DNA from: a virus
Virus record (IMG/VR): IMGVR_UViG_3300013111_000141
Span: 32,761-96,760 of that record
Strand: one strand, 5' to 3'
DNA: 64,000 bases
How positions within the stretch are numbered: the first letter of the stretch is position 1; each line of letters opens with the position of its first letter. Below, piece by piece: positions 1 through 8,873 of this stretch. Both the position numbers and the translations under genes were made by a program. Under the pieces are notes generated by a model. That model was not told the DNA's origin, ran no database searches, and saw nothing but the letters and a program-made list of their open reading frames with translations.

Positions 1-597
1 ACAATCAAAATATTTTAATAATCCAATATGTCTGAATCCAACAAGTTCTAATGGGTGTCGTGTAACTATATCACAATTATTTTTAAATCTATAAAATGTT
101 GGAGTAAACGAATCAGCAAACTCAGAATCACCCACTCTAGGCGACCCAAATGTATATCCTATAGAATCTTTCCCACCAAACCGTGATGAAGCTAAAGTAC
201 ATAAAGCAGCTCCCAAACTATGACCTGTAAAATATACATTCCTGTGTTTATCTCCGGCCATTGAATAATCTACATAATGTTGAAGCAAATCATCATATAT
301 CAAGTCTAATGCACCTTTAAATCCCCTATGAACACTACCAATACTGTCTGATTCAACCTTTCTAAATTTTATATCTGCCTCAATATCTGACAATTGTGTT
401 GGTTCCGTCCCACGAAATACATATATAATATCTTCATCATCCCATAATCCATAACATTGAGTAGACCCATTATTAAAAAACTTAATATCATATTTCTCTG
501 AATATATTTCTGAGAAATCTACAACATCCAAATAAGCATTCATAGACAATCCAGAAAAAAACATTGCATTTTTATAACTAAATTCCCTATTTAACAT
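1..597 (-). CDS. Class 3 lipase (alpha/beta hydrolase), truncated by the window edge
   Basis: Manual translation from ATG 597 (absent from the ORF track): MLNREFSY...YVFRGTEP...VHRGFKGA...YFTGHSLGAAL...YTFGSPRVGD...DIVTRHP; these are the Lipase_3 motifs, including GxSxG. Confidence 0.9.
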   Translation of the reverse strand, partial: MLNREFSYKNAMFFSGLSMNAYLDVVDFSEIYSEKYDIKFFNNGSTQCYGLWDDEDIIYVFRGTEPTQLSDIEADIKFRKVESDSIGSVHRGFKGALDLIYDDLLQHYVDYSMAGDKHRNVYFTGHSLGAALCTLASSRFGGKDSIGYTFGSPRVGDSEFADSFTPTFYRFKNNCDIVTRHPLELVGFRHIGLLKYFDC

Positions 598-598
598 A

Positions 599-805
599 TC
601 AATCTCCAGAGCAATTAACAGAAATAGAATTTGGTGATACTGCCTTAGCTACTTGTTTCCTAAGTGCAACCCTCCCCCCTTCAGGGATTGAACAATAACG
701 TTCTACTGTATGGGATGCTGCCAATTTTACAGTATCCATCTTAGAACAACCTTGTATAAGTATAATACTTAATATCACTAAACACCACTTAAATAATTTC
801 TTCAT
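599..805 (-). CDS. Small putative lipoprotein
   Basis: Basic N-terminus, hydrophobic stretch and lipobox-like IQGC; two further Cys. Confidence 0.6.
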   Translation of the reverse strand: MKKLFKWCLVILSIILIQGCSKMDTVKLAASHTVERYCSIPEGGRVALRKQVAKAVSPNSISVNCSGD

Positions 806-972
806 TTCCCACTCCTTAATAAGTTTTCAAATCGTTTTTCTTGTTTCACCTTTGACTCCTTCTCAACATTTAATGCCGACATTTCACGGACAATAACCCT
901 ATACCGTAAAGCACATATAAGAATATCCTTATCAATATTTTCAATTGATCGATCAAATTTATTACAATTCAT
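802..972 (-). CDS. Hypothetical protein (56 aa)
   Basis: Manual ORF MNCNKFDRSIEN...RSGK; ATGA overlap with the next gene. Confidence 0.5.
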   Translation of the reverse strand: MNCNKFDRSIENIDKDILICALRYRVIVREMSALNVEKESKVKQEKRFENLLRSGK

Positions 973-991
973 TATATATCTCTTCTTGTTA

Positions 992-1022
992 GAATAATTC
1001 CGCCAAAATTGACGGAATATTC
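992..1022 (-). terminator. Intergenic hairpin (terminator or processing stem)
   Basis: GAATA-TTCCGTCA-ATTT-TGGCGGAA-T-TATTC stem; no clear U-tract. Confidence 0.35.
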
Positions 1023-1034
1023 ATAATAAATATA

Positions 1035-1355
1035 TTATTTAAAATTATATCGGTACTCTACCGCTACATTTTCTGCATGTTGATCAGTACCCTCAAATAA
1101 ATCCCATGGTCCAGACATATTGAATCGATTATACATTAAACCAACTTCATGAACCTTTCCAGTTCCAATATAAGCATTAGTAAAAAGTCGTAACGCGTTA
1201 GTATCTTGTGAACCAGACCAAAAATTACTCATTCCATCTGCATCTTGTGTCCAACGAAATCCAGCATCTTTCATCTGAATTGAAAATGCATCCTCGGCCA
1301 TAGATGTTGTTGTAAACGCAAATAATACTGTAAATAACATTAATATTTTTTTCAT
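1035..1355 (-). CDS. Exported beta-rich protein
   Basis: Probable start ATG 1355 after AGAGGA; signal peptide MKKILMLFTVLFAFTTTSMA; ends VAVEYRYNFK. Confidence 0.6.
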   Translation of the reverse strand: MKKILMLFTVLFAFTTTSMAEDAFSIQMKDAGFRWTQDADGMSNFWSGSQDTNALRLFTNAYIGTGKVHEVGLMYNRFNMSGPWDLFEGTDQHAENVAVEYRYNFK

Positions 1356-1385
1356 ATTTTTTCCTCTTTGTTGTAAAAATGAAAC

Positions 1386-1417
1386 ATAATGTGGATATTT
1401 TCCAACACCCACATTAT
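1386..1417 (-). terminator. Hairpin downstream of the tmRNA coding piece (likely terminator)
   Basis: ATAATGTGGGTGTT-GGAA-AATATCCACATTAT 14-bp stem followed by GTTTCATTTTT. Confidence 0.65.
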
Positions 1418-1418
1418 A

Positions 1419-1915
1419 TATATAAGAGGATTTCTGTTGCCAAGTATCCCCAAACTCCGCATACTTATATACTAAGCTGCAACCGCAAAATTATCATCTG
1501 CATTTATTTTTTTGATTTTTACATCTTTCTTGATGAATAGTCCATATACAATATAATACATTGTCGAATCTGTTCTCCCCCACAAAAATTGTCTAGTCAC
1601 AACCCAAAAGTCCTGCAGAACTTCATGAACGCCACTTGCGGCTAAGGATACCCGGGAGTTTGTTGTCCCGTGTTCACATACGTCCATATATACATTGTAG
1701 AACCCATCATCGCTGGTTTGGTGCTAAGTTAAATGAACCCGTTGGCTCTGGGGGAATTCCCCCTCACCATCTCTCGTACGCTCCATCTATTCTACTAAGT
1801 ATACCGTGTGTCACACATTCCGTATACATTGAATAATATACATCTACACTAAACAATTTATGTGGAAGAGGTGGGAATCGCACCCACGTCCAACATACAT
1901 AAAATATACTTCAAA
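1419..1915 (-). ncRNA. ssrA: Circularly permuted (two-piece) tmRNA: acceptor piece ~1915-1863, intervening segment 1862-1582, coding piece 1581-~1419
   Basis: T-arm/acceptor GGAC-GTGGG-TGCGATT-CCCAC-CTCTTCC-A precedes the 5' end GGGGGAG-AACAGATTCGAC. The acceptor stem pairs with G3.U70 and has discriminator A. Tag (A)ADDNFAVAA* at 1501-1472 follows an A-rich resume context. 3' motif TTGGCAACAGAA. Confidence 0.9.
1582..1862 (-). ncRNA. Unidentified structured RNA within the tmRNA intervening segment
   Basis: Ends pair (AAATTGTTTAGT/ACTAGACAATTT); several internal hairpins; GC-richer than the flanks. Confidence 0.55.
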
Positions 1916-1918
1916 CTA

Positions 1919-2221
1919 TTATGCTTTTAACTTTAAATCTTCCTCCGTTACAATATCTTCATACCCATCATACTCACGAACATAAAACTTTAACCCCTCT
2001 GTAACATATGACAATTTCATATTATCAAACTCATATAAATTATGAGTTGGTTCTGACATCGCCATCACCTGTTTATGAAATGATTTCTCATCCCCATGCA
2101 AAAATTCATAAATTAATTCAGCATCCATTCTAAGTGATTGGGGTTTAATGGCAAATCCACTACCCCAACCAGCATGTATAAGAACCCCTACTTTACCATC
2201 TGCACTATAATATTTACCCAC
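1919..2221 (-). CDS. Hypothetical phage protein
   Basis: 100-aa ORF overlapping the fadJ stop; GKVGVL..GWGSGF...EYDGYE. Confidence 0.65.
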   Translation of the reverse strand: MGKYYSADGKVGVLIHAGWGSGFAIKPQSLRMDAELIYEFLHGDEKSFHKQVMAMSEPTHNLYEFDNMKLSYVTEGLKFYVREYDGYEDIVTEEDLKLKA

Positions 2222-4202
2222 CTACGTTCTCCACTAATTGCGAACCTTGTGAATGATATTGTTTAGTAATTTCTTTGTTTACTTCATCTGAATAATGTAA
2301 TGGTCCACCCCTAAATGGAGCAAATCCAGTACCAAAAATAATACCAGAATCTATAAGGTCAGAAGATTCTACAATACCCTCATCTAAACATAATTTACAC
2401 TCTGAAATAATTTTCCCTATTAACCTTGACTTTATCTCTATTTTAGGATCTGCATAAATCTTATCTACGGGTTTACCTTTATTATATATATAAAACCCCC
2501 TACCAGATTTAATACCCAATTTACCTTTGTCTACTAACTTCTTTAATCTCTTTGGAACAGTAATTCCAAGATCCTCACTTATTATATCCGTAACAAAATA
2601 ACAAACATCAAGTCCTACAGTATCTGCCAATAATAAAGGTCCCATTGGCATACCAAAATCAGTAAAAGAATTGTCAATTTCTTCTTTACTATATCCTTCA
2701 TCTAACATATTAATAGCCTCAATAAGTGTAGGCATTAACACACGATTAACTAAAAATCCTGGACTTGATTTAACTTTTAATGGTAACTTATCAATATGTC
2801 TACAAAATGACATAGACTTCTCTATAACATCCTCTGAAGTAATATCTGAATATACCACTTCAACCAAAGGCATTTTTGCAACTGGATTAAAAAAGTGTAT
2901 ACCAACTAATCTCTCAGGATTTTTCATTTCACTTGATAATACTTCCAACTTGATAGAAGATGTATTAGTGCCCAATATAGCGGTACTTTTCATTTCAGAT
3001 TCTAATTCACTATATAAGTGACGTTTAATATCCGCATTTTCAACAATAGCCTCAATGACTATATCTGCGGAAGATATACCATATCCATTTTTATCAGGAA
3101 TCAACCTATCATACACTTCATTGATTAAATAATCCTTCCCAGAAAATCTTTTTGCATAAAATTTATACGATCTTTTCATTGCGGCAGCTATGGTGTTATC
3201 ATCAATATCCTGTAAAGTCACCTTATATCCCCTTAGAGACGCCCACATTGCAATATCTCCACCCATTGCACCAGCACCTATAACGTGGACATGTTTAAGA
3301 TCTAACTTAGATTTATCACCAGAAGATTTAAGTAAATCCTGTAACTTAAACACTCGTAATAAATTCTTCGCAGTATCTGTCATTGCTAACTTAGAAACTG
3401 ACTCCGCCTCTGCATTCATAAGATGATGCTCATTATATCCATATTTTTCCCATATATCAACTAAAGCATATGGTGCTGGATAGTGTGATTTTTTTACCTC
3501 TTTCCTTAAAGTTCTACGCAATTGCATTGATAATAACCTTCTACCAATACCAGAATTCAATACATAATCTAATTTATCTGGTCTTCTAACTGGTGGACAC
3601 TTTGCAAGTACATCTTCCGCAGATTTAACTAATAAACGTTCAGGAACCGCATAATCAACTAATCCCATCTTTTTTGCTTGATATACTGATAAAGTACGTC
3701 CACTTAACATCATACCCATAGCCTTAATAACACCAAGAACTCTAATAGACCTAACAGAACCACCAAATCCAGGATGTATACCCAACTTAACTTCAGGAAA
3801 TCCGACTCGGATATTAGGTGAATCTAATATAATTCTATAATCACATGATAATGCAAGTTCCAATCCACCACCAAGACACAATCCATTAATTAATGCTAAT
3901 GTAGGAAATTCCATGTCATCAATTAACCACATCACTTCTTGTCCTTTAGTAATGGCTTCATAAGCATCATCATACTCATGAAAATCCTTAAATTCTGTAA
4001 CATCAGCACCAGCAATAAACCCAGTTGATTTATCAGAACAAATAACCATACCATCAGGATTATCAGATTTAACCTCTAATAATACATCTTTTAATTCCGT
4101 TAATACTTCACCAGATAATACATTCATACTACCATAAGAATAATCAAAATGTACCCATGCTATATTGCTAAAATATTTTAATTTGAAATGTTTATAATTC
4201 AT
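2214..4202 (-). CDS. fadJ: Fatty-acid oxidation multifunctional alpha subunit (enoyl-CoA hydratase + 3-hydroxyacyl-CoA dehydrogenase; FadJ/FadB-like)
   Basis: Crotonase domain FIAGAD, GGGLELAL, GFPEVKLGIHPGFGG; HAD domain GAGAMG, EAIVE, NTSS, HFFNP, PGFLVNR, GMPMGP. Confidence 0.93.
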   Translation of the reverse strand: MNYKHFKLKYFSNIAWVHFDYSYGSMNVLSGEVLTELKDVLLEVKSDNPDGMVICSDKSTGFIAGADVTEFKDFHEYDDAYEAITKGQEVMWLIDDMEFPTLALINGLCLGGGLELALSCDYRIILDSPNIRVGFPEVKLGIHPGFGGSVRSIRVLGVIKAMGMMLSGRTLSVYQAKKMGLVDYAVPERLLVKSAEDVLAKCPPVRRPDKLDYVLNSGIGRRLLSMQLRRTLRKEVKKSHYPAPYALVDIWEKYGYNEHHLMNAEAESVSKLAMTDTAKNLLRVFKLQDLLKSSGDKSKLDLKHVHVIGAGAMGGDIAMWASLRGYKVTLQDIDDNTIAAAMKRSYKFYAKRFSGKDYLINEVYDRLIPDKNGYGISSADIVIEAIVENADIKRHLYSELESEMKSTAILGTNTSSIKLEVLSSEMKNPERLVGIHFFNPVAKMPLVEVVYSDITSEDVIEKSMSFCRHIDKLPLKVKSSPGFLVNRVLMPTLIEAINMLDEGYSKEEIDNSFTDFGMPMGPLLLADTVGLDVCYFVTDIISEDLGITVPKRLKKLVDKGKLGIKSGRGFYIYNKGKPVDKIYADPKIEIKSRLIGKIISECKLCLDEGIVESSDLIDSGIIFGTGFAPFRGGPLHYSDEVNKEITKQYHSQGSQLVENVGG

Positions 4203-4205
4203 AAG

Positions 4206-5510
4206 TTATCTCTTTAAATTTTCAACTAATATTGCACCACCTTGCCCATGCCCAATACATAAAGATGCAACCCCATAATGACCACCATTTGATTCTAACG
4301 TCTTAATTAAATGATATACTATCCGTGTTCCAGAAGCACCTACAGGATGACCCATACTAATAGAACCACCATGAACATTTAGTTTTTCATCAGGTATTAA
4401 CCCAAATGGTTCATCCAATCCAAACTCAGATAAACAATAATCCACATCATTCATTGCCCTTGTACAACCAATAACTTGTGATGCAAAAGCTTCATTTAAT
4501 TCCCAACTATCAATATCATCACATCGTAACCCATTTCTCATAACAAGAGGAACTATTGACTGAACTGGACCCAATCCCATCTCTGATGGATCTACTCCAG
4601 CCCACTTAGTATCAATAATTTTTGCAATAGCTTTATCACGTAACCCATACTTATCCAAGGCATCCTCACTTGCCAACAAAACAAATGAAGCACCATCCGT
4701 AATAGGTGAAGAATTACCCGCAGTCACATTACCAAATATTTTATCAAAAACTGGTCTTAATTTCCCTAATTTTTCAATAGTGTTCTTAGATCTAACAGAT
4801 TCGTCTTTATTATAAAAATTCCCATCAGTATCATATATAGTAACAATCTCATCCTCTAATACATTAGTATTTTGTGATATCGACGCTTTCATATGACTGT
4901 TTAATGAATAATCATCCATATCATTTCTAGATATATTAAACTTATATGCCAAATTCTCAGCAGTCTGACCCATTGATAAATTAATAGTTGGATCTTTTAA
5001 TGCACGTAATAAACTAATCACTGGGACTAATAACTTAGGTCTAAACTTAAGTAACACAGACAACTTCTTAGATAATGTCTTAGCTAATGTAAATTCAGAC
5101 AACCACATAGTCATATCATCATTAAATAATAATGGTGCCCTACTCATAGTTTCCGTACCACCAGCAATAATCAAATCGGACTGTCCACAAGATATACTCC
5201 TATATGCCGAATCAATTGACTGCAAACCAGAAGCACAATTTCGTTGTACCGTATATGCCGGTATATTAACATTAAGACCTAATCGTAATGCTAACAATTT
5301 TGCAATATTACACTCATCAGCGTTAGGATTCATACAACCAACAACCAATTCATCCACATCATCATTACTAATATCATTACGAATTAACATAGGTCTAACC
5401 GCCTGAATCGCCAAATCCAATGCCTTAAACTTTCCAGGACTTCCCTTCGCCTTTAAAAAAGGTGTCCTACTACCATCTACAATATATACATCATTTAACT
5501 TGTATTTCAT
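4206..5510 (-). CDS. fadI: 3-ketoacyl-CoA thiolase (FadI/FadA-like)
   Basis: RTPF, NCASG (catalytic Cys), GNSSPITDGA, NEAFA, GHPVGASG, CIGHGQG. Confidence 0.93.
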   Translation of the reverse strand: MKYKLNDVYIVDGSRTPFLKAKGSPGKFKALDLAIQAVRPMLIRNDISNDDVDELVVGCMNPNADECNIAKLLALRLGLNVNIPAYTVQRNCASGLQSIDSAYRSISCGQSDLIIAGGTETMSRAPLLFNDDMTMWLSEFTLAKTLSKKLSVLLKFRPKLLVPVISLLRALKDPTINLSMGQTAENLAYKFNISRNDMDDYSLNSHMKASISQNTNVLEDEIVTIYDTDGNFYNKDESVRSKNTIEKLGKLRPVFDKIFGNVTAGNSSPITDGASFVLLASEDALDKYGLRDKAIAKIIDTKWAGVDPSEMGLGPVQSIVPLVMRNGLRCDDIDSWELNEAFASQVIGCTRAMNDVDYCLSEFGLDEPFGLIPDEKLNVHGGSISMGHPVGASGTRIVYHLIKTLESNGGHYGVASLCIGHGQGGAILVENLKR

Positions 5511-5527
5511 AACTACTATCTCCCTTC

Positions 5528-5698
5528 TTAAGGGTCATCCTTTAAATTCATAAATTTCTTACGTTCCAATAATAACATATAACACCTACCACAATGCCAC
5601 GTGCTATCGTCTTTTAATAATTCTTCAATCAATGTCAAATTCATCTCACTATAACTAATATCATTACATAAACATATTATATTCCTATGTCTATTCAT
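5528..5698 (-). CDS. Bfd-like [2Fe-2S] small protein (56 aa)
   Basis: Manual ORF MNRHRNIICLCNDIS...WHCGRCYM; CxC...CGxC pattern. Confidence 0.55.
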   Translation of the reverse strand: MNRHRNIICLCNDISYSEMNLTLIEELLKDDSTWHCGRCYMLLLERKKFMNLKDDP

Positions 5699-5711
5699 AT
5701 TTTGATATATC

Positions 5712-5900
5712 CTATATCGGTATGTTATCCTTAACTAAAATAAGTCCTGTTGCAATAATTATCCATATCGGTATTAATACAAATAAAATACCTAACAATA
5801 TTTTATTTGTAATATCTTCAGCTTTCACCGACATAGACATAACGTTACATAAAATCACAAATGAAAGTACACATAACCAAACTATTTCAAACCACCCCAT
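5712..5900 (-). CDS. Small membrane protein
   Basis: Two hydrophobic segments. Confidence 0.55.
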   Translation of the reverse strand: MGWFEIVWLCVLSFVILCNVMSMSVKAEDITNKILLGILFVLIPIWIIIATGLILVKDNIPI

Positions 5901-5909
5901 ATTAAACTC

Positions 5910-6929
<1,020 letters not shown>

Positions 6930-6941
6930 TAAATCACCGCA

Positions 6942-8873
6942 TTATTTGGTTTCGGGTTTACCCTCTGGAACAGGATCCACTGGTTCTTCAACCACCTCTG
7001 CATTGACAACTTCGGCATCTACAGTCTCGGATGTTGTAGTGGAATCATCTCCAACATCTTCCCCTGTTGGTTCTGGTTTTTGTAATTTTGCAGACAACTC
7101 TACTAATGATTGTACTTTAGTATTAATATCATCTAAATCTTCACCAGACATAGACTCTTTTAATTCTGCAACACTATTTACAATATCAGTTCTTTCTTCA
7201 TCAGTAATTACAATTTCCTCATCTGATAATTTACCCTCAACATCATTAATAAATCCTTCAGCCATATTTCTAGCACCAACTAATGCAGTATACTTCTCAT
7301 CTGCCTCTTTATGTTCTTCACCCTCTTTAATCATACGTTCTACATCCTCATCAGATAATCCAGATGAAGATTTAATTTCAATGGACTGTTCCTTACCAGT
7401 ATTTTTATCTTTGGCAGAAACATGCATAATACCATTAGCATCAATATTGAATTCAACTTCAATTTGTGGTGTTCCGCGTGGTCCTGGTTGAATTTCTGTC
7501 AAATCAAACCTACCTAAAGAATTGTTACCAGAAGCAACTGAACGTTCACCTTGCAGAACATGAATAGTAACTGCCGGTTGATTATCTTCGGCAGTTGAAA
7601 ATACTTCACTTTTTTTCGTTGGAATAGTAGTATTCTTTTCAATTAATGTGGTCATTACACCACCCATAGTTTCAATACCTAATGATAATGGAGTTACATC
7701 AAGCAATAATACATTATCAATACCACCAGATAACACACCACCCTGTGTAGCAGCACCAAGAGCAACTGACTCATCAGGATTTACATCCTTTCTCGGTTCA
7801 ATACCAAAAATAGATTTTACCATTTCTTGAACTTTAGGCATTCTAGTTTGTCCACCAACTAAAATAACATCATCAACCTTAGTAACATCTGCATCCTTTA
7901 AAGCAGTAACACATGGGGTTTTTGTACGTTCAATTAATTCAGATACCATCTTCTCCAATTTAGAACGTGAAATCTTAACATTTAAATGTTTAGGACCAGT
8001 TGCATCCGCAGTAATATATGGTAAATTTACTTCAGTTTCTTGAGTCGATGACAACTCAATTTTACACTTCTCTGCCGATTCTTTTAATCGTTGTAATGCA
8101 ATAGGGTCATTATGAAGATCCACCCCGTTTTCTTTTTTAAATTCATCACAAAGATAATCAATAAGTCGTAAATCAAAATCCTCACCACCTAAAAATGTAT
8201 CACCATTAGTAGACAATACTTCAAAGGAATATTCTCCATCCACATTAGACATCTCAATAATAGAAACATCAAAAGTACCACCACCAAGATCATAAACAGC
8301 AACTACCTTATCATCTTTAACATCACCTTTATCTAAACCATAAGATAAAGCTGCAGCTGTAGGTTCATTGATAATTCGCATAACATCTAGTCCAGCAATC
8401 TTACCAGCATCCTTTGTTGCTTGTCTTTGTGAATCATTAAAATAAGCAGGAACAGTAATAACTGCCTGTGTCACTTCAGAACCCAAATATGACTCCGCAT
8501 CTTTTTTTAATTTCATTAAAATTTTTGATGAAATTTCTGGGGGAGATAATAACTCACCACCAGATTTTACCCACGCATCACCATTATCCGCCTCTACAAT
8601 GTCATAAGGCACCATGGATATGTCCTTTTGAACTGCATCATCTTTAAACTTTCTGCCAATTAATCTCTTAACCGCAAACAATGTATCTTTTGGATTAGTC
8701 ACCGATTGTCTCTTAGCTGACTGTCCTACTAATATTTCCGAATCCGAATGTGAAACTATAGATGGTGTCGTCCTAGAACCTTCACCATTTTCAATTACTA
8801 CTGCCTTACCATTCTCTAACACAGCTGCGCATGAATTAGTAGTACCCAAATCAATACCAATAATATTACCCAT
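6942..8873 (-). CDS. dnaK: Chaperone DnaK (Hsp70)
   Basis: [53 protein letters not shown]. Confidence 0.97.

Follow-up and report, generated by a model that had tools for sequence, protein, structure and literature searches.

What occupies the 281 nt that separate the two pieces of a tmRNA gene in a marine T4-like phage? The phage is represented by a 96.8-kb IMG/VR virus record that is ~54% complete and encodes a T4-type major capsid protein, and we analyzed a stretch of 64,000 nt of this record (the window; positions without a contig name refer to it). A first-pass annotation had proposed that the segment between the two tmRNA pieces is a highly structured cargo RNA, released by tRNA-type processing, rather than a short discarded spacer. 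The spacers of two-piece tmRNAs are usually regarded as disposable; here we find a portable RNA module under selection, and the spacer is probably a small phage RNA gene and not a throw-away segment.

A permuted tmRNA gene without an encoded CCA

The locus gives a complete match to the Rfam model of permuted tmRNAs and is also matched by the Rfam alpha_tmRNA model (46.6 bits), while ARAGORN misses the tmRNA itself. The 7-bp acceptor stem, the G3-U70 pair, the T-arm and the tag frame with its alanine resume codon and stop are all present. The features of the gene are the following:

1472-1920, minus strand: permuted two-piece tmRNA, spacer included (Rfam RF04321 tmRNA_permuted, 89.9 bits, gathering threshold 47, model positions 1-213 complete)
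1863-1920, minus strand: tmRNA acceptor piece (RF04321 alignment and sequence)
1871-1887, minus strand: T-arm (RF04321 alignment)
1864-1870, minus strand: acceptor 3' strand, paired with 1575-1581
1863, minus strand: discriminator A, with CAU next instead of CCA
1582-1862, minus strand: intervening segment (spacer), 281 nt
1472-1581, minus strand: tmRNA coding piece (RF04321 alignment), starting at G1581
1575-1581, minus strand: acceptor 5' strand, with G3 opposite U70
1472-1501, minus strand: tag frame, ADDNFAVAA and stop (codons read from the sequence)
1384-1419, minus strand: intrinsic-terminator-like hairpin ending the tmRNA transcript, a 16-pair stem followed by a T-rich tail

The sequence and the RF04321 alignment place the spacer at exactly the coordinates that the first-pass annotation had given it. 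The acceptor piece does not encode CCA, since A1863 is followed by CAU. An encoded CCA after the discriminator is not universal in tmRNAs according to the 2025 tmRNA database paper (PMC11915505). In contrast to this CCA-less tmRNA, the tRNA-Met (CAT) gene of the same phage (19635-19707, minus strand) does encode its CCA. No promoter-like site was found on the sense strand inside the spacer element.

Spacer length and composition among related phage tmRNAs

At 43% GC the spacer is richer than the window (30.8%), as had been noted from the sequence before, and also richer than the tmRNA pieces (34.5%). To place its length among relatives, we used a 22-nt T-arm probe that pulled at least 119 viral contigs, in 109 of which both halves of the permuted tmRNA were located. 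Spacer lengths among these 109 T-arm-sharing phage tmRNAs fall into discrete classes of 8, ~32, 72 and 97 nt and up to 125 nt, followed by classes of 246 nt and of 279-282 nt, the last of which is confined to the lineage of this phage. The same class is the only one in which ACAU replaces ACCA after the acceptor strand; the other spacer classes encode CCA. The discrete lengths suggest that spacers in T-arm-sharing phage tmRNAs are cassette-like in general. The earlier view that the length of this spacer is unusual therefore holds among its relatives, but the accompanying rule that such spacers measure tens of nucleotides was too strong, given the ~140-nt spacer of phage Melnitz, the 246-nt class and the cargo-bearing spacers described in the tmRNA database paper (PMC11915505).

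The 246-nt class was seen in two contigs (L081:486-1047 and L113:2479-3040). Its sequence is unrelated to that of the 281-nt spacer, and it carries a perfect hairpin of ~19 bp directly before the coding piece. An exact 21-mer of the T-arm was also present in 13 contigs from metagenome-assembled genomes (MAGs; L135-L147) assigned to Patescibacteria, Saccharibacteria, Dehalococcoidia, Verrucomicrobiales and others. They probably belong to phages and entered the MAGs during binning.

We then asked whether the spacer resembles any described RNA. A search of Rfam 15 with three copies of the module gave no family beyond noise, either at gathering thresholds or at E-values up to 10 for the window copy and up to 5 for the copies in L124 and L129, and ARAGORN reported no tRNA-like element within or near the module. 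The match to a known family that the first-pass annotation had named as refuting its proposal is thus absent from Rfam 15. Further, a blastn search of the GenBank phage collection with positions 1400-2000 returned no match, and we found no published account of a structured RNA within the spacer of a phage tmRNA.

A conserved RNA fold

Scans of viral and metagenome sequences yielded ten copies of the element, nine of them distinct, with a mean identity of 93% (alignment A1). The module is 274 nt long in the window and 271-275 nt (~272 nt) in the other copies. Its parts are as follows:

1586-1859, minus strand: conserved RNA module, bounded by the two outermost bases of the closing stem, 274 nt (covariance model R1, 313.8 bits; alignment A1)
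1848-1859, minus strand: closing stem, 5' strand, 12 bp, paired with 1586-1597
1586-1597, minus strand: closing stem, 3' strand, paired with 1848-1859
1688-1847, minus strand: 5'/central domain, with long-range helices, a G5/C5 hairpin and two competing pairings for 1765-1769
1598-1685, minus strand: 3' domain, a three-way junction and a terminal hairpin, with helices 11-15 almost invariant

The consensus fold comprises 15 helices with 83 pairs in total, and pairing is kept in 98.8% of its cells across the nine distinct copies. Seven pairs have changed on both sides, compared with 3.3 +/- 1.1 in shuffles; none of 500 shuffles reached seven, and sliding the partners left 0-2 such changes. In the closing stem, alignment pairs 4/275 and 8/271 covary, and in the 5'/central domain double-sided changes are found at pairs 66/164, 78/124, 99/110 and 101/108. 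Support falls on the closing stem, the long-range helices that pair 1789-1804 with 1688-1703, the helix enclosed by them, the G5/C5 hairpin (1750-1763) and a single hairpin within the 3' domain. The covariation is modest because the set comprises only nine distinct sequences at 93% mean identity, and helices of the 3' domain that never vary are uninformative in this respect. For the central domain, the data fit two alternative pairings equally well.

Several helices had been proposed from the window sequence alone, and they fared differently when compared across copies. The 12-bp closing stem next to the acceptor stem is real, with its two covarying pairs, and all copies retain the G5/C5 hairpin, the 6-bp junction helix of the 3' domain with its two inner hairpins, and the TGGTG/CACCA helix. 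The last of these is intact in every copy and either competes with a part of the consensus fold or forms a pseudoknot with it. However, the proposed TTATTC/GAATAG pairing is confined to the window copy (57.9% of cells paired), the GAGCC/GGTTC helix is broken in one-third of the copies, and the local GTATAC/GTATAC hairpin (81.5% paired) is outdone by a long-range helix that is 100% paired with adjacent covariation. Taken as a whole, the first-pass list of helices is 90.7% paired across copies, against 98.8% for the consensus fold.

The description of the spacer as highly structured depends on what is folded. By energy the spacer alone does not qualify (z = -1.43), since 18 of 200 shuffles fold equally well. 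When folded together with the acceptor strands it reaches z = -2.97, and the corresponding value for the free-standing copy in L129, described below, is -3.99. In the window, the closing stem stacks on the acceptor stem, and together with the pairing of 1860-1870 with 1575-1585 it forms a basal helix of 22 bp with a single U-U mismatch. The fold is also strand-asymmetric, at -77.3 kcal/mol for the sense strand versus -57.0 kcal/mol for the antisense strand (z = -1.43 versus -0.11), and the sense-strand fold contains many G-U pairs.

The two halves of the element are conserved in different ways. Contigs that share the window's tmRNA backbone are 80-95% identical in their flanks and 82-95% in the 5' half of the element (81-95% between copies overall), whereas the 3' half is 97-100% identical within one backbone and ~91% across backbones. 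The conservation of the 3' half equals that of the tmRNA pieces, while the 5' half has diverged like the fastest flank and nonetheless kept its pairing. Judged by these sequences, the 5' half drifts freely under a pairing constraint and the 3' domain (1598-1685) is constrained in sequence, its unpaired stretches included. This conservation of nine copies with their pairing kept bears out the idea of a discrete structured module as opposed to a random spacer.

One element in three contexts

The proposal that the spacer holds an inserted element or cargo gains support from the distribution of the module, which occurs in two divergent tmRNA backbones and once free-standing. In contig L126 the element (81% identical in the 5' half and 91% in the 3' half) sits in a tmRNA with a divergent backbone. 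Identity between its coding piece and that of the window is only 68%, no higher than for tmRNAs with unrelated spacers. A recombinant between these two types was found in L124:346-915 when compared with L126 and with window positions 1417-1986. It matches the window type exactly in the upstream part of its acceptor piece and the L126 type exactly in its element and coding piece, with the crossover near the shared T-arm. Both backbones have the special acceptor stem, and the exchanged unit therefore probably covers everything from the invariant T-arm to the conserved beginning of the coding piece.

The third context is a full free-standing copy (L129:228-502; 305.8 bits with R1) on one metagenome contig of 1078 nt, around which neither Rfam nor ARAGORN found a tmRNA. 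One pair of its closing stem is flipped with pairing retained. The outer flanks of this copy are unrelated to the acceptor stem and yet pair with each other, giving a basal helix of 28 contiguous bp (z = -3.99). Next to this copy, on the downstream side, lies a gene with 85% identity to one of the phage studied here (G000:C1:8242-8448). Neither this phage nor any of five related contigs has an element at the corresponding site, and three of these contigs have one in their tmRNA. In every context the module rests on a long helix formed by different flanks, which is hard to reconcile with an assembly artefact or with transposition and is the expected product of RNA-level selection for a processing stalk. 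Two further features of this contig were observed. Upstream of the element, L129:150-222 contains a 17-bp hairpin with a short direct repeat in its loop; because the 3' arm of this hairpin and the outer portion of the 28-bp stalk overlap, alternative folds are possible. Downstream of the element lies a perfect sigma-70-type promoter (561-590).

The family appears narrow in the collections that were searched. Model R1 found one copy per record in six records, which served as positive controls, no copy in 45 whole related phage records and only the known copies over ~1 Mb of loci. No copy was found in ~186,000 bacterial and archaeal genomes, and further viral scans with patterns of the 3' domain returned the same 7-8 contigs only. 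Matches in L121, L123 and L130 are located inside protein-coding DNA and were rejected as chance matches.

Alternative explanations

The spacer could be a cis-acting maturation device that folds the precursor, presents the stalk, times or gates tmRNA maturation and is then degraded, with no role in trans. Closing stems beside the acceptor stem are indeed common in the lineage (Melnitz has one of ~10 bp), and the loss of the encoded CCA coincides with the element, suggesting that the end-processing route and the spacer co-evolved. However, the element is equally conserved without a tmRNA in L129, spacers of 8-97 nt suffice in most relatives, and a mere stalk has no need of invariant unpaired stretches in the 3' domain, so we consider a purely cis-acting device unlikely. 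It would seem improbable, too, that the element is selfish MITE-like DNA whose terminal inverted repeats settled in an insertion-tolerant spacer and whose RNA fold is incidental. Its inverted-repeat ends, its discrete unit of ~272 bp, its presence in two kinds of loci and the varied content that the spacer slot accepts would all fit such DNA. Against this stand the single copy per record in the six records, the absence from the 45 related phage records and from bacterial genomes, and the lack of a visible target-site duplication at either junction (window and L129). Moreover, transposition does not produce flanks that are complementary beyond the shared unit, as they are in both contexts, and selection at the RNA level is indicated by the compensatory changes in the interior and by the strand-asymmetric fold.

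The element might also excise itself from the precursor, as a ribozyme by self-cleavage or self-splicing or as a degenerate group I intron. This idea deserves mention because group I introns invade tmRNA genes (PMC11915505); the size suits small introns and the 3' domain could be an invariant core. We nevertheless give this explanation very little weight. No Intron_gpI or ribozyme family matched, at E-values up to 10 in the window copy and 5 in L124 and L129, and the paired ends resemble a nuclease stalk rather than splice sites. Known tmRNA introns lie in the T-loop and have their exons rejoined, but this element separates the 3' end of the tRNA-like domain from its 5' end, and the two pieces must remain apart. 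Finally, a small protein gene on the antisense (plus) strand of the spacer can be practically discounted. A stop-free frame of 79-90 codons does exist on that strand in six of the ten copies, including an ORF at 1636-1836 with a TTG start in the window, but frameshifts and stops interrupt it in L023, L111, L127 and L129, and it is oriented opposite to all neighboring genes. Its codon differences comprise 1 synonymous and 15 nonsynonymous changes, with the fewest changes at third positions. The open antisense frame (1636-1836 in the window, likewise in L009 and L126) is probably a by-product of composition. Single-base indels at six alignment columns argue against coding altogether, and no frame is conserved across the copies, in agreement with the first-pass annotation, which had seen no credible ORF.

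A model for release and function

We favor the reading of the module as a self-contained structured non-coding RNA of ~272 nt that is carried in the pre-tmRNA, freed from its stalk and active in trans, and we estimate the probability of this reading at roughly 0.55. The anatomy of the module, its conservation, covariation and strand, its non-coding nature and its modularity over three contexts are established, and from these we infer that it is probably released as a stable RNA, by the nuclease proposed below, and that it probably has a function in trans.

According to this model, the module and the tmRNA would be transcribed as one unit from the minus strand, and the paired ends of the module would extend into the tmRNA acceptor stem to form a helix of ~22 bp. 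A host nuclease specific for double strands (RNase III type) would most likely cut this stalk and free the module with its paired ends. Such a host endonuclease is the most likely candidate because leader and trailer are fully paired, and a flank helix of ~20 bp or longer, as an RNase III-type stalk needs, is present both here (22 bp) and in L129 (28 bp). RNase P would trim the 5' end of the tmRNA coding piece, and 3' trimming together with a host CCA-adding enzyme would complete the acceptor piece, in which CCA is not encoded. The phage record, which is half complete, was found to contain no RNase III, Rnl2-type ligase, CCA-adding enzyme or SmpB, implying that the processing enzymes are those of the host. 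Release of the segment by tRNA-type processing, as proposed earlier, is thus probably not the whole story, given a paired leader and trailer of 22 bp and, in L129, a 28-bp helix without tRNA-like handles; the ends of the tmRNA itself would still be made by RNase P and 3' trimming. Once freed, the RNA would probably act in trans through its invariant 3' domain, for which protein binding is our most plausible guess, with the variable 5' domain as a scaffold. A circular form, or a role as ribozyme, decoy or anti-defence RNA as suggested in the first-pass annotation, would be conjecture.

A broader hypothesis, which we offer only tentatively, is that the spacer of phage two-piece tmRNAs is an exchangeable expression slot for otherwise unrelated cargo RNAs, with the invariant T-arm and the start of the coding piece as recombination anchors, and that the module represents a new class of stable non-coding RNA, portable between tmRNA and free-standing loci by means of its own stalk, whose invariant 3' domain binds or inhibits a host factor during early infection. 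Given the narrow family, the module may instead be a lineage-specific passenger without function. The favored reading, a trans-acting RNA released from the pre-tmRNA, would suggest that phages use the precursors of stable RNAs as delivery vehicles for other RNAs. The element adds an uncharacterized structured RNA family from abundant marine T4-like phages, and it provides a small and concrete object for studies of RNA processing, namely stalk cleavage and the repair of a CCA-less 3' end, and for a search for protein partners.

Relation to known systems

Phage T4 encodes two small stable RNAs in its tRNA gene cluster, species 1 and 2 (rnaC and rnaD), whose function is unknown; they are co-transcribed with tRNA-type genes and released by the RNA-processing enzymes of the host. 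We regard them as the nearest analogy for the way the element may work, with no relation in sequence or structure claimed. Species 1 and 2 are shorter and lie between tRNAs, whereas this element lies inside a tmRNA. In rRNA operons and in the early transcripts of phage T7, flanking sequences pair into helices of at least 20 bp that RNase III cuts to release the RNA. The predicted helices of the element, 22 bp here and 28 bp in L129, are like such RNase III stalks, but in the tmRNA context, unlike in those systems, part of the stalk is the acceptor stem, which must survive.

The nearest cultured example of the gene itself is the ssrA gene of Methylophilales phage Melnitz EXVC044M (MZ577097, 45984-46436; Buchholz et al. 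2022, PMC9004378). Melnitz and this phage are both marine and T4-like and have in common the order of acceptor piece, spacer and coding piece, the alpha-type features and a stem-closed spacer beside the acceptor stem. However, the ~140-nt spacer of Melnitz is unrelated in sequence and structure and has no R1 match, and Melnitz encodes the CCA that the tmRNA of this phage does not. A published glutamine riboswitch lies downstream of ssrA in Melnitz (52.8 bits), and Rfam identified none here. Cargo in tmRNA spacers has been reported before in the form of a tRNA-Ala gene in one spacer and a repetitive element in another (PMC11915505). Like this element, these cargoes make the excised segment more than a plain spacer, but they are a known RNA type and a repeat, whereas the element described here is conserved, structured, without a family and also free-standing.

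Neighboring phage genes

Host-like genes lie immediately upstream of the tmRNA, on the minus strand, in the first part of the window (1-8873):

1-597, minus strand: class 3 lipase
2214-4202, minus strand: FadB-like enoyl-CoA hydratase/3-hydroxyacyl-CoA dehydrogenase
4206-5510, minus strand: thiolase
5910-6929, minus strand: DnaJ
6942-8873, minus strand: DnaK, 65% identical to bacterial DnaK

The region from the lipase to DnaK thus holds a set of fatty-acid beta-oxidation and chaperone genes in a marine T4-like phage. Elsewhere in the record (L132:1100-2500, corresponding to G000:C1:8100-9500), a promoter-like block consisting of an A-rich run, TTGAC, ~17 nt and a -10 element of the TATGAGA type is repeated before successive small genes. 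These repeated blocks are likely phage early promoters.
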